NCBI GenBank assembly: GCA_044356215.1
Contig: JBIKWQ010000059.1
Coordinates: 1-21,930 of the forward strand
DNA from: Bdellovibrionota bacterium
GTDB lineage: Bacteria; Bdellovibrionota_C; UBA2361; OMII01
DNA length: 21,930 nucleotides
Reading direction: 5' to 3'
The notes below the pieces were generated by a model. That model ran no database searches. It had not been told where the DNA came from and saw only the letters and a program-made list of their open reading frames with translations. Shown here in pieces: positions 2,298 through 8,130 of the stretch (within the stretch, counting starts at the first letter, position 1; each line of letters opens with the position of its first letter). Made by a program: the position numbers and the translations under genes.

Positions 2298-3101
2298 TTA
2301 AGCCGCCCTCTCCGATCCCTCTTGACCCTTATTATTTAGGTTTAGCCTCTCTATCAGCTCGCCCGCCAAAGCTAGGTAGGCCTTTGCACCAGCGCTCTGC
2401 GGATCGTAGGAACAGATCGGCAGGCCGTGACTTGGGGACTCCGAGAGTCTAATGTTGCGTGGAATCTTTGACCTAAACACTTTATCAGCGAAATGACGCT
2501 CAGCTTCTTGAAGAACCTGGACGGAGAGGTTTGTCCGCGCGTCATACATGGTTAAAAATATGCCGAGTAGTCCAAGAGCTGGATTAAACGTCTGCTGCAC
2601 AAACGAGATCGTGCTCAACAGCCCCGTTAGTCCCTCAAGGGAGTAGTATTCAGCTTGTAGCGGAACAAGAACATGCTGCGCGCTTCCCAGCGCGTTTAGA
2701 GTCAAGAGACCGGAAGAGGGCGGACAGTCAATCAAGATGACATCGAAGGCGTCCTGAATCTCCCTAAAGGCGTTTCGAAGGATTAACTCGCGTCCGGGCG
2801 CCTTACCTATCTCCAGCTCAAGGCTGACTAAGTCGTGTGAGCCCGGGATCACCCAGAGATTTGGGATGGAAGAGGGGACTACCGTATCCCGAAAAGGGAT
2901 TCTTCCAAAAAATGCATCATAGAGGTCTGCGCCCTCGGGAAGCTTCTCCATACCAAGGCCGCTGGTAGCGGATGCCTGAGGGTCGAAATCGAGCAACAAA
3001 ACCTTAAAACCTAGCAGGGCGAGCTGACTTGAGAGGCTTACTGCACTGGTAGTCTTGCCAACACCACCTTTCTGATTTGCGATTGCGACTATGTGAGCCA
3101 T
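2298..3101 (-). CDS. parA: Chromosome partitioning ATPase ParA/Soj
   Basis: Deviant Walker A 'NQKGGVGKTT', 'DFDPQASAT', 'IDCPPS', 'PLQAEYY', 'IPRNIRLSESPSHG'. ATG at 3101 preferred over the TTG at 3116 in the ORF track. Confidence 0.97.
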   Translation of the reverse strand: MAHIVAIANQKGGVGKTTSAVSLSSQLALLGFKVLLLDFDPQASATSGLGMEKLPEGADLYDAFFGRIPFRDTVVPSSIPNLWVIPGSHDLVSLELEIGKAPGRELILRNAFREIQDAFDVILIDCPPSSGLLTLNALGSAQHVLVPLQAEYYSLEGLTGLLSTISFVQQTFNPALGLLGIFLTMYDARTNLSVQVLQEAERHFADKVFRSKIPRNIRLSESPSHGLPICSYDPQSAGAKAYLALAGELIERLNLNNKGQEGSERAA

Positions 3102-3245
3102 CGATGGAGATCTCAAATTATAGGAGCTGAAACCGCCTAAACCCGACTAGGAACGCATATAGGCGACAAGTTGTTACAGTTATCACGAGTAGTGACTAGA
3201 AACAAGCGAATTGAGCTGCGTGAGAGAATTTGCAGAGGGCGTGAG

Positions 3246-3261
3246 TGTTCCACGTGGAACA
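3246..3261. promoter_or_regulatory. parS site 3
   Basis: TGTTCCACGTGGAACA; palindrome extends to 3244-3263. Confidence 0.95.
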
Positions 3262-3453: not shown

Positions 3454-3469
3454 TGTTCCACGTGGAACA
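3454..3469. promoter_or_regulatory. parS site 4
   Basis: TGTTCCACGTGGAACA; palindrome extends to 3451-3472. Confidence 0.95.
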
Positions 3470-3555: not shown

Positions 3556-3571
3556 TGTTCCACGTGGAACA
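3556..3571. promoter_or_regulatory. parS site 5
   Basis: TGTTCCACGTGGAACA; palindrome extends to 3554-3573. Confidence 0.95.
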
Positions 3572-5398: not shown

Positions 5399-6187
5399 CT
5401 ACTTGTGGGTAATGGTGAGAGCTACACATCCACCCACACTCCCAAACCGCCTGTCTAGTGAAGCATTTGGATCGATCATCCTTGGAACAACACCTGAGGA
5501 ATTAACAAAGACACACCCCAGACTATCCGGCGGAAGTTGATCCACTAACGAGCGCGCCTCATCAAGCGCCCTCAGCCAATCTCTCTTCAGTTGTACTGGG
5601 TCTAAAGGAGCTCGCAATTGCTCAACAGCTAGCAAATCAGGGGTAATACGCGCGTTCCTACTCAACAATTCAAGTATTAAATCAGGGGTAAATCCCGGAT
5701 CCTTTCCGCATGCCGCCCAACAACATAGGCCTAAATGCAGGGTCTCTTGATGTATCGATAGCAGATCGATTACGTCACGAACTTCGGTTCGATTGGCGAG
5801 AGCGAGCGCCTTATTTATCGCCGCATCTATATCATGCAGCCTATAGCCGAACTCGAGATCAGCGACGGCAGGGAAGAATCGAAATGCGGTGTCAGATACC
5901 CATTCCAGCTTTACCGACTCAGAATCCTTTAACGCGATGCAGCGGACAAAGCCACGCTGCTCCGACAAAATCTTGACCTGATAATAGTTGGCACGAAGCG
6001 TTGACATATCTATCCCCGCGCAAGCTTGAACAGAAACATCTGGATCGTTAAATATGTCCACATCAACTGAGAAACGCGGGGAGCTATCAGACCTATTGAT
6101 AACAGTCGCTCCCGCAACATAGCTATCTGGGGCTCGATTACTCGCCAGAAGCCTTAGCACCGCGCGTTGAAAATCGGTTATGGGCAT
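5399..6187 (-). CDS. AbiEii/AbiGii-family nucleotidyltransferase (putative toxin)
   Basis: 'YVAGATVIN...PRFSVDVDIF' (G-x-T ... R-x-S-x-D-x-D) and 'INKALALANRTEVRDVIDL' (K...R...RD-x-x-D); start overlaps the upstream stop (ATGCCCATAA). Confidence 0.82.
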   Translation of the reverse strand: MPITDFQRAVLRLLASNRAPDSYVAGATVINRSDSSPRFSVDVDIFNDPDVSVQACAGIDMSTLRANYYQVKILSEQRGFVRCIALKDSESVKLEWVSDTAFRFFPAVADLEFGYRLHDIDAAINKALALANRTEVRDVIDLLSIHQETLHLGLCCWAACGKDPGFTPDLILELLSRNARITPDLLAVEQLRAPLDPVQLKRDWLRALDEARSLVDQLPPDSLGCVFVNSSGVVPRMIDPNASLDRRFGSVGGCVALTITHK

Positions 6188-6591
6188 AACTTCTTAGCCT
6201 CCATAAAACCTTCGCGTCCTCCATGCCGCCGCAATCCCTGCGCGATAAGCGGAAGCAGCTTGGGCGTAACTTCAAGATCTGGGCGAAGATGCCAGAAGCA
6301 CTGCGCGTAATACCGCTTAAATAGCTGCTGGCCCATTCGAGCTCTCTCTTCCTCCGACGGGGCGCTAGCAGAAACACCACCTGCGGTGCCGTGACTTAAA
6401 TTATCCGACTGTACCAAGGCAACATATTCGCTAAGTATCTCGTTTATTCGCGCCTGGTACCCGCGCCCCTGAGATTTAAAGTATGAAACCACAGAGGGGG
6501 CTAATTTGATGTATACTGGCACCTTTTCCTCAGCGGCTTTATCGGCGCTCCGCCTGCTTTGCACAAGTGCTTTTAGGTACTTATCCTGCAT
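6178..6591 (-). CDS. Putative antitoxin: BrnA-type ribbon-helix-helix domain fused to a small C-terminal helical domain
   Basis: 'KVPVYIKLAPSVVSYFKSQGRGYQARINEIL' fits the BrnA antitoxin motif; a Gly/Ser linker precedes 'LFKRYYAQCFWHLRPDLEVT...GLRRHGGREG'; coupled to the nucleotidyltransferase. Confidence 0.75.
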   Translation of the reverse strand: MQDKYLKALVQSRRSADKAAEEKVPVYIKLAPSVVSYFKSQGRGYQARINEILSEYVALVQSDNLSHGTAGGVSASAPSEEERARMGQQLFKRYYAQCFWHLRPDLEVTPKLLPLIAQGLRRHGGREGFMEAKKLCP

Positions 6592-6627
6592 ATATATAAT
6601 TATATATATAAGCTAGTGTGCCGTCAA
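6590..6627 (-). promoter_or_regulatory. Sigma70 promoter (leaderless) with overlapping 20-bp palindrome
   Basis: TTGACG (6627-6622), 17-bp spacer, TATAAT (6604-6599), 7 nt, ATG (6591); perfect palindrome ATATATATAATTATATATAT at 6590-6609. Confidence 0.8.
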
Positions 6628-6643: not shown

Positions 6644-8062
6644 CTACTTCCCAGCACTACGCCCCTGCAACCTCTCGCGCCTACGCTTAGCCCAGCCCTC
6701 TTTTAAGCTCTGCTCAGCGCGGCCAAGCGCTAAAGCATCCTGCGGCACATCGCGAGTAATCACAGATCCAGCGGCGATTAAAGCTCCCTCACCTATCTTA
6801 ACCGGAGCTACCAGGCACGAGTTGCTTCCAACAAAAACTCCCCGGCCTATCTCTGTGCGGGACTTCTTGTAGCCATCGTAATTACAGGTGATCGTTCCTG
6901 CGCCGATATTAGCGTCCTCGCCAACTTCACAATCACCTAAGTAAGTAAGGTGCGAAGCCTTCGCTCCATCAGCTAAGACCGCGTTCTTTACCTCAACGAA
7001 ATTACCAACTCGCGCGTTCTTACCAAGCACAGTTCCGGGCCGTAGATGCGCGCACGGACCAACAGTCGTTCCCTCACCAACTGTGGCGCCCTCAATCCGA
7101 GAACCAAAACGTACCTCGGCGCTTTCTCCAATCTGCGCATCTATTAAAAGCACCGAGCCCTCGATGACGGCGTTCTTGCCTATCCTAGTTCTGCCTTTTA
7201 GCTGCGTAGCCGGCCCGATTAAAGCACCAGGCTCAATCTCAACCTCCGGATCAATCCAGCATGTAGCAGGATCAACAAAATTAACCCCAGAATCCTGAAG
7301 CTTTACGATCTCTCTCTCAACGAGAACTGAGTTAACAAAATCAAGATCTCTCCTGGTGTTCACACCAGCCGCTTCGCGCGCGTCACCTAATGGAAAAGCC
7401 GTAACGCGTTGACCCTCTTTAACAGCTTTAGCGACGATATCAGTTAAGTAATACTCACGTTGCGCATTGTCGTTTGTAAGCGACTCGACCGCTGGCTTTA
7501 AGAATGCCGAATCAACGGCGTAAATTCCGGAGTTTACCTCAGTTATAAGTAGCTCCTCAGGATTACAGTCCTTCGCCTCTGTGATCCGCTCAACATCTCC
7601 AGACCTGTTACGAACGATCCTTCCGTATCCATTAGGGGGAGGGGAGGTAAACGAGATCATGCTCAAAGTTGAGCTCTTAAATGTGTGGTAGCTAATAAAG
7701 TGACTTAATGTAGCCTGTGTAAACAGCGGATGGTCGGCATAAGAGAGGATAACAGTCCCCTTACATCCAGCTAGATTAGGCAGCGCACGCTTTACCGCGT
7801 CGCCCGTTCCCAGCTGCTCATCCTGAAAGGCGAACTCAATATTGTGACCCTTCGCCGCCGCGCTTTGAGCGAGATGCGCCTCAACAAGCTCTCGTTTGTG
7901 ACCAACAACGATAACTGTCTTCTCAGGTTTTAAAACTGATAAACCAGCGAGCACCTGATCGATTAAAGCCCCACGCCGGGTCTCTGTAATAGCCTTTGGA
8001 AGATCGCCCCCCAAACGCTTACCGAGCCCAGCAGCTAAAATTACGCAGAATATCTTTTCCAT
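6644..8062 (-). CDS. glmU: Bifunctional UDP-N-acetylglucosamine pyrophosphorylase / glucosamine-1-phosphate N-acetyltransferase
   Basis: 'ILAAGLGKRL...PK', 'QDEQLGTGDAV', 'GYGRIVR', 'EVNSGIY', 'NDNAQREYYLTD', hexapeptide repeats, 'GNFVEVK', 'HLTYLGD', 'NIGAGTITCNYDG'. ATG at 8062 preferred. Confidence 0.97.
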   Translation of the reverse strand: MEKIFCVILAAGLGKRLGGDLPKAITETRRGALIDQVLAGLSVLKPEKTVIVVGHKRELVEAHLAQSAAAKGHNIEFAFQDEQLGTGDAVKRALPNLAGCKGTVILSYADHPLFTQATLSHFISYHTFKSSTLSMISFTSPPPNGYGRIVRNRSGDVERITEAKDCNPEELLITEVNSGIYAVDSAFLKPAVESLTNDNAQREYYLTDIVAKAVKEGQRVTAFPLGDAREAAGVNTRRDLDFVNSVLVEREIVKLQDSGVNFVDPATCWIDPEVEIEPGALIGPATQLKGRTRIGKNAVIEGSVLLIDAQIGESAEVRFGSRIEGATVGEGTTVGPCAHLRPGTVLGKNARVGNFVEVKNAVLADGAKASHLTYLGDCEVGEDANIGAGTITCNYDGYKKSRTEIGRGVFVGSNSCLVAPVKIGEGALIAAGSVITRDVPQDALALGRAEQSLKEGWAKRRRERLQGRSAGK

Positions 8063-8130
8063 GGCCGGGTAAGTATCCCATACAATGGGGGTTAGGGCTA
8101 TCAAGGAGATGTGGCAGGGAGCGTCGCTCC

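Follow-up and report, generated by a model that had tools for sequence, protein, structure and literature searches.

The window analysed here is a stretch of 21,930 nucleotides from the Bdellovibrionota bacterium assembly GCA_044356215.1 (contig JBIKWQ010000059.1, positions 1 to 21,930). On its minus strand, directly behind glmU, lie two overlapping genes that probably make up a bicistronic, self-regulated toxin-antitoxin module, or one of an abortive-infection type, in which a MenT-like nucleotidyltransferase would be the toxin and a small two-domain protein the representative of a new antitoxin family. The first gene (6178..6591) encodes the proposed antitoxin, a 137-amino-acid (aa) protein whose two domains and linker were delimited from the open reading frame (ORF) list, Pfam matches, an alignment and a structural model. 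The second (5399..6187) encodes the proposed toxin, a 262-aa nucleotidyltransferase with a predicted DUF1814/AbiEii/MenT fold. The small protein begins with a BrnA-type head of predicted ribbon-helix-helix fold and ends in a separate tail, hereafter the C-domain (residues 74-137, 6181..6372, minus strand), which is the proposed toxin-neutralising module. What is familiar in this pair is the proposed toxin, and what seems new is the modular antitoxin family.

The last 10 nt of the antitoxin gene, including its stop codon, are also the first 10 nt of the enzyme gene (ATGCCCATAA, 6178..6187, minus strand), a layout which suggests that translation of the enzyme is coupled to that of the antitoxin. 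A Shine-Dalgarno-like GGAGG for the enzyme gene (6198..6202, minus strand) sits within the 3′ end of the antitoxin gene, 10 nt 5′ of the enzyme ATG. The initial annotation had described a BrnA-like domain fused to a small domain and coupled to an AbiEii-type nucleotidyltransferase, with no BrnT, behind glmU and under its own promoter. The ORFs and their overlap are as it described them, and every protein string that it quoted occurs in the translation. The placement also holds, with a gap of 52 nt between glmU (6644..8104, minus strand; Hexapep and NTP_transferase matches) and the 137-aa ORF and with a promoter matching the consensus at 11 of 12 positions, as do the BrnA-type head and the absence of a neighbouring BrnT, both taken up below.

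Pairing and asymmetric loss of the two genes

Among 124 genomes of the phylum, the C-domain was found in 39 (45 places) and the enzyme family in 37 (41 places). Of these enzyme matches, 32 start at profile position 1; all 32 have a C-domain match directly upstream on the same strand, and a single overlap register is common to 28 of these intact pairs. The remaining nine enzyme matches comprise two at a contig start and seven that are without the 5′ part, three of the seven having a C-domain match upstream. Loss runs in one direction: an enzyme match is absent beside 10 of the 45 C-domain matches, and no intact enzyme was found without a C-domain gene. At several loci the small gene is intact and the enzyme has decayed, with enzyme residues 1-29 left at L009, 1-46 at L024 and 84-143 at L030, an internal deletion of approximately residues 35-153 at L025, and nothing of the enzyme at L037. 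Such a pattern of pairing and loss would be expected of an enzyme that does harm when the small protein is missing and of a small protein that does none by itself. It also agrees with the features by which toxin-antitoxin pairs are generically recognised in genomes, namely coupled genes, a toxin that never occurs without its antitoxin, and orphan antitoxins that are tolerated.

The same association extends to metagenomes. A search made with headless forms, using a narrower alignment and the pattern CFWHx[PKR][PR]DL, yielded 80 loci, a sample biased by that pattern; 44 have a full enzyme directly downstream, in 17 the contig ends within an enzyme that starts there, 8 have a partial enzyme and 4 none, and 7 leave no room for one. 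This sample shows the tail occurring by itself, with no head, ahead of a member of this enzyme family. Judged from these genomic associations, the C-domain seems to be a conserved, dedicated partner of the enzyme.

The genome analysed here holds a second C-domain gene on another contig (C83:14314-14496; L009:1498-1797, minus strand). It encodes a 99-aa protein with a different head, the IGRKGG type described below, and has a ATCATAAGCTGCTTATGAT palindrome upstream and about 29 first codons of the enzyme downstream, making it an orphan antitoxin.

Heads of the small protein and the palindromes at its start codon

The head was assigned from residues 13-57 (6421..6555, minus strand), which match PF14384 BrnA_antitoxin with an E-value of 1e-11 and 45.5 bits against a cut-off of 26.1; a profile search of the whole genome found the match again over the same span. 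Coverage of the family is partial: the match spans profile positions 24-68 of 68 and lacks the opening third of the model. A low-complexity linker follows (residues ~58-74, 6370..6420, minus strand), delimited from the alignment and from the predicted local distance difference test (pLDDT) of a model based on the 21-sequence alignment of fused homologues (mean pLDDT 79.7); residues 67-74 fall below 50 and are modelled as disordered, and linker length varies across the 21-sequence alignment. Residues 21-72 of the model align to CopA(SO), the omega repressor, ParD, TacA1, PrpA and other ribbon-helix-helix structures with Z-scores of 3.1-3.7, values that agree with one another but are low, the model being of a monomer and the fold one that arises on dimerisation. 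The fusion recurs, a point that the initial annotation had put up for checking: the fused alignment holds 21 sequences at 28-87% identity, and the fusion with the same enzyme downstream was found at 14 further loci in other genomes of the phylum and at 13 metagenome loci.

Upstream of the small gene, a promoter scan placed a −35 box TTGACG at 6622..6627 and a −10 box TATAAT at 6599..6604 on the minus strand, with a 17-nt spacer, and by eye related loci show TTGAC-type boxes equally far from the start. Seven nucleotides lie between the end of the −10 box and the A of the ATG, with no Shine-Dalgarno sequence among them. Given the usual spacing from a −10 box to a transcript start, the transcript would begin at or next to the start codon, and the mRNA is therefore likely leaderless. 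A perfect 20-bp palindrome, ATATATATAA/TTATATATAT (6590..6609), spans the −10 box and runs into the start codon, and it is a candidate operator for the ribbon-helix-helix head.

Comparison of 31 loci showed that heads and palindromes vary together. The small protein carries a BrnA-type head at 15 of these loci, a head with the signature IGRKGG..SRR at 14, and no head at 2. TA-rich palindromes occur at the start of the gene in all 15 BrnA-headed loci, in two forms, seven of the ATATATAAT type and eight of the GTATATAC type; ATATATAATYRTATAT, allowing one mismatch, was found at 7 of the 15 and at none of the 14 IGRKGG-headed loci. The eight loci with GTATATAC-like octamers are made up of six with two copies 13 nt apart, one with two copies 28 nt apart and one with a single copy. 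A TCATAAGCNGCTTATGA-like palindrome is present at 13 of the 14 IGRKGG-headed loci, including one (L005) from a Vicinamibacterales genome in another phylum. Neither palindrome type was found at the start of the other head class, and both headless loci have neither. By eye, many headed loci of both classes share one layout, in which a TTGAC box, a spacer of ~17 nt, a −10 box inside the palindrome and 6-7 nt precede the start codon. It is chiefly from this co-variation that we argue for binding of the palindromes by the heads and for a different function of the tail.

We also mapped head types onto a tree of 25 enzymes, leaving out ORFs shorter than 240 aa and the duplicate loci L001-L004. Two changes of head type account for the distribution, against a mean of 8.8 after shuffling, and none of 200 shuffles gave a count as low. 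The two TA-rich operator types fall into separate supported groups on this tree (93/94 and 94/97). The small protein forms one partner family with at least three head states: headless, BrnA-type and IGRKGG. In the initial annotation a DNA-binding module from another system had been grafted onto the partner of the nucleotidyltransferase; a head is indeed joined to such a partner, and it is better regarded as a single state among the three or more that this family shows.

The other head, with the longer signature IGRKGG..SRR..VREARRAF, has no Pfam family; loci that carry it include L009, L027, L030, L033, L035, L037-L040, L042, L044, L045 and L005. It is tied to a conserved ATCATAAGC-N-GCTTATGAT palindrome over the −10 box at 13 of 14 loci in two phyla, and on this pattern it may be an undescribed DNA-binding module.

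The enzyme, the C-domain and how the module may work

The enzyme scores 26.3 bits on PF08843 AbiEii, for which the cut-off is 22.5 (E-value 8.7e-6; profile positions 6-223 of 238), and its structural model is confident (pLDDT 91.7; predicted template-modelling score 0.88). The best Foldseek matches of this model all belong to DUF1814, namely JHP933 (E 1e-6), TglT/MenT3, MenT4 (template-modelling (TM) score 0.55) and MenT1, at probability 1.00, E-values of 1e-6 to 1e-4, TM-scores of 0.38-0.55 and 12-17% identity. In an alignment of 39 enzyme homologues, G26, R38, S40, N125, K126, R133, R137, D138 and D141 never vary, and D42 and D44 are kept in 90% or more of the sequences. The stretch R38-F-S40-V-D42-V-D44 (6056..6076, minus strand) is taken to be the active site, and the spacing of R38-x-S40-x-D42-x-D44 equals that of R76, S78 and D82 in MenT3, an equivalence drawn from spacing and not from superposition. 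These MenT3 residues are named in PDB titles and in the available part of PMC11375011, which gives S78 as the phosphorylated residue. A non-significant hhalign alignment places S40 opposite a Thr of the genome's own MenT1-like protein. As modelled, the enzyme would be a distant member of the DUF1814/AbiEii/MenT nucleotidyltransferases, and we consider it probable that the whole module is a toxin-antitoxin pair built on such an enzyme.

More distant homologues of the enzyme, at 30-37% identity, lie on alphaproteobacterial plasmids, where they are annotated as AbiEii/AbiGii-family or hypothetical proteins and follow other small hypothetical proteins; no relative was found in phage records. Those on plasmids of Devosia neptuniae (L118:1162-2301) and Cereibacter sphaeroides 2.4.1 (L119:1280-2277) share 30-33% identity with the enzyme, and the small proteins ahead of them, 111 and 72 aa long, carry no annotation. 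A relationship between these two small proteins and the C-domain was considered and set aside, the C-terminal helices lining up at an hhalign probability of 0.5-1.5%.

The C-domain is modelled as three helices (residues 80-98, 110-123 and 125-135; block pLDDT ~89-92), and in a 59-sequence alignment a C-F-W motif is invariant, with a D, an L-R and one G of a GG pair nearly so. No Pfam family matches it at E≤1 in the window protein or 20 relatives, and NCBIfam gave no family above cut-off for either protein of the module or for 19 relatives. The suggestion that this tail is DUF6922- or MenA-like failed, as DUF6922, MenA1 (PF18993) and the AbiEi families all gave no match at E≤1; its description as a separate small domain outside the catalogued families, and as the enzyme's own partner, was supported. 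The 59-sequence profile retrieved chance-level rows from the PDB (best E 0.93), and Foldseek with the antitoxin model returned nothing at E≤0.001. For residues 71-137 the wide VIA structure search found only generic helical matches with Z no higher than 4.2, a result that does not in itself show a novel fold, and the domain's look-alikes in the Atlas are unnamed "hypothetical protein" clusters (scores 0.88-0.90), mostly from Verrucomicrobiota.

The domain is widespread. An exhaustive search with the 137-aa protein gave 266 cluster representatives (50% identity) at E≤1e-3, and among the 150 representatives listed, 132 are tail-only (residues ~51-137), mostly 63-120 aa long, 16 have two domains, one is a plain BrnA and one is a repetitive chance match. 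Three C-domain relatives are labelled Acidobacteriota and Pseudomonadota; two Amycolatopsis loci were dropped as 13-residue chance matches. At four loci (P0221, L125, L139 and L142) a single open frame joins the C-domain to the C-terminal two-thirds of the enzyme (from profile positions 67-82), the catalytic N-terminal part being deleted and a fused remnant left.

We propose that the enzyme acts as the toxin and, by analogy with MenT1, MenT3 and AbiEii, would add nucleotides to the 3′ ends of transfer RNA (tRNA) and so stop translation. The C-domain would neutralise it specifically and by direct contact. Since R-x-S-x-D-x-D is conserved, one specific possibility is that the C-domain provokes auto-phosphorylation of Ser40, as MenA1, MenA3 and AbiEi do on their own toxins; antitoxin-induced auto-phosphorylation is described for T39 of MenT1 and S78 of MenT3 in the available text of PMC11375011, and for T65 of AbiEii in that of bioRxiv 10.64898/2026.01.19.700257. 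The BrnA-type head is predicted to dimerise and to bind the 20-bp TA-rich palindrome over the −10 box and start codon, which would repress the operon, and the enzyme would be translated from the internal GGAGG, coupled to the antitoxin through the 10-nt overlap.

A more ambitious version of this proposal is possible, and we put it forward tentatively. The C-domain, with its 266 clusters, may be an unrecognised and widespread antitoxin domain that offers a new three-helix interface against MenT-type enzymes, most likely forcing auto-phosphorylation of Ser40. It might also serve as a plug-in platform and, as such, would have acquired two or more DNA-binding heads, with the IGRKGG...SRR head new in itself and reading ATCATAAGC-N-GCTTATGAT.

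Several observations weigh against a self-regulated module of MenT-like toxin and contact-dependent antitoxin. The margin by which the enzyme passes its AbiEii hidden Markov model is small (3.8 bits), its PADLOC AbiEii match is weak (PDLC02298, E 7e-4) with none for the antitoxin, and searches of the PDB with the enzyme sequence or profile gave chance-level rows in which MenT-family entries were not found; the assignment to AbiEii/MenT is therefore carried largely by the fold search. Promoter-like sites in the region are in no excess (2, against 1.7 in shuffles), so support for the promoter comes from the quality, position and conservation of one site, and the grouping of BrnA-partnered enzymes into a single clade is weakly supported (67/78). 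Binding between C-domain and enzyme is argued from genomic association, and the C-domain model has no structural relative that would hint at a mode of action. Finally, MenA4 does not bind MenT4, according to the available part of bioRxiv 10.64898/2026.01.19.700257, and a non-contact mode therefore also exists in the family.

This last point leads to the alternative that survives best, though we think it unlikely: the module is real but works with no contact between antitoxin and enzyme, in a type IV-like arrangement where the C-domain protects or restores the target or only regulates the genes. The classification of AbiE originally as type IV fits this, as does the MenA4/MenT4 case. Three things speak against it. 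Even the headless C-domain, which is 63-110 aa long and lacks a DNA-binding part, keeps its strict association with the enzyme; tight overlap of the genes points to matched expression levels; and AbiEi is now reported to bind AbiEii in the accessible portion of the same preprint.

Quite unlikely, in our estimate, is that the enzyme is not a toxin at all and serves instead as a housekeeping, resistance or signalling nucleotidyltransferase, with the small protein as its transcriptional regulator or specificity subunit. The DUF1814 superfamily also includes ANT(2″)-Ia and JHP933 (bioRxiv 10.64898/2026.01.19.700257, in the part available). JHP933 is the best fold match of the enzyme, and housekeeping genes (glmU, parAB and a cyclopropane-fatty-acid synthase-like gene) are its neighbours. 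Against a non-toxin role stand the patchy presence of the family (37 of 124 genomes), the absence of the module from all 29 other glmU loci in the genus, the decay of enzyme genes beside intact small genes, and a copy of the module beside IS91-type transposase remnants. The genome's 10 other AbiEii-type matches also count against it, and the seven upstream ORFs scanned there include AbiEi, DUF6088 and Rv0078B-type partners.

The roles could also be reversed, with the small protein as toxin and the nucleotidyltransferase as an antitoxin that modifies it, as in HepT-MntA-type systems, where nucleotidyltransferase antitoxins exist. That precedent, together with invariant C-domain residues to which no role has been assigned, is what speaks for it. 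We regard it as very improbable, because the small gene is found alone at 10 of 45 places and the enzyme alone at 0 of 32, because the small gene comes first and its product carries DNA-binding heads, as is usual for antitoxins, and because the fold relatives of the enzyme are toxins. An origin of the fusion as an assembly or gene-calling artefact, conceivable in a draft of 131 contigs, was rejected and has practically nothing left in its favour, since the fusion lies in a single uninterrupted frame and recurs in 21 fused homologues (28-87% identity), at 15 loci in different genomes and at 13 metagenome loci.

Genomic setting and comparison with known systems

The module is accessory, and a range of 1.5 kb around the 29 other glmU loci of the genus contains no copy of it. 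A relative (L001:1447-2080, minus strand, and L001:2177-2527) holds a copy 95% identical to that of the window behind a 3′ fragment of glmU only (residues 365-481; 90% identical to the window glmU), and that copy adjoins remnants of an IS91-type transposase, with matches to Y2_Tnp at E 1.6e-5 and to Zn_Tnp_IS91 at E 0.004, the latter below its cut-off. Because the copy combines a glmU fragment with IS91-family remnants, it hints that the module travelled together with a piece of glmU.

Elsewhere in the window, the palindrome GTTCCACGTGGAAC occurs in five perfect copies (2252-2265, 2278-2291, 3247-3260, 3455-3468 and 3557-3570), against a chance expectation of none, flanking parA (2298-3116) and parB (1165-2205). 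These copies resemble the consensus of parS centromere sites, and this resemblance suggests that the window lies near the replication origin.

The genome is 3.2 Mb long and contains 11 AbiEii-type matches, 10 of them above cut-off (loci L010-L017 among them). Seven ORFs upstream of its other AbiEii genes were scanned, and six match AbiEi_3, AbiEi_4, DUF6088 or Rv0078B families; the ORF upstream at L017 has an AbiEi_4 match below cut-off and that at L011 has no family match. The partners of these other enzymes fall into four families: AbiEi_3, AbiEi_4/AbiEi_1, DUF6088 and an Rv0078B-related 72-aa protein. All six BrnT matches in the genome lie on other contigs, and none adjoins the module; three lie directly upstream of BrnA matches, as canonical BrnT-then-BrnA pairs (contigs C36, C50 and C115). 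One further BrnA-type match (C7:26622-26789; L079:1492-1926) lies in the frame region that also holds the 3′ end of a carbamoyltransferase-like ORF, with neither a BrnT nor an AbiEii-type gene seen alongside.

MenT/AbiEii toxins are an active topic, for blocking tRNA function and for phage defence. The shuffling of DNA-binding domains among antitoxins is well known, and the finding would not overturn current ideas. The known antitoxins AbiEi/MenA3, MenA1 and MenA4 are mutually unrelated, and at least three induce auto-phosphorylation of their toxins; if our reading is right, this small and widespread family would be a fourth kind of partner, unrelated to the others, and would offer a clean test of how general that mechanism is. 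The three head states, of which the headed ones have their own palindromes, would likewise be a natural experiment in the gain of antitoxin autoregulation.

As to precedents for the combination itself, the initial annotation had not recognised it as a described system. No description of an AbiEii/BrnA pairing was found in the available texts of the literature searched, a search that covered the surveys without their supplementary tables. In the available part of PMC12654330, a marine survey, the partners of AbiEii are AbiEi, DUF6088 or "hypothetical", and BrnA is not among them.

The nearest structure to the enzyme is JHP933 of Helicobacter pylori (PDB 4o8s and 4ok0), its best fold match (E 1e-6, TM-scores 0.48 and 0.53), although the two share 15-16% identity. 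With BrnTA, the pairing of the BrnT ribonuclease and BrnA, the module shares the ribbon-helix-helix part of BrnA above the Pfam threshold, including a G-x-G-Y-Q signature; it differs in covering only profile positions 24-68, in having no adjacent BrnT and in having an AbiEii-type enzyme as the downstream gene. In TASmania, by contrast, a BrnA-like cluster is paired with BrnT in 99.88% of cases (PMC6504116, in the text available).

MenAT1 (MenA1/Rv0078B with MenT1) is similar in that a small antitoxin gene comes first and a DUF1814-fold nucleotidyltransferase second, and in having a Ser or Thr two residues ahead of the DxD motif (S40 here). There are also differences. The C-domain has no PF18993 match at E≤1 in the window protein and 20 relatives, its hhalign probability against the genome's own Rv0078B-like protein is 0.9%, and the enzyme is 262 aa long compared with ~195 aa for MenT1. 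Moreover, MenAT1 is reported not to autoregulate (PMC11375011, in the part available), whereas the antitoxin here has a predicted DNA-binding head over its own promoter.

AbiEi-AbiEii/MenAT3 (COG5340 with DUF1814) shares the order of antitoxin then toxin, an enzyme of the AbiEii family, the R-x-S-x-D-x-D layout and, as predicted here, an antitoxin that binds DNA through its N-terminal part and neutralises through its C-terminal part. It differs in the antitoxin itself, which in our module is not matched by AbiEi_1, AbiEi_3, AbiEi_4 or DUF6088 at E≤1, is 137 aa long in place of the ~200-280 aa of a typical AbiEi, and bears a predicted ribbon-helix-helix head where AbiEi has a winged helix, whereas the other AbiEii loci of the same genome have canonical AbiEi_3, AbiEi_4 and DUF6088 partners.

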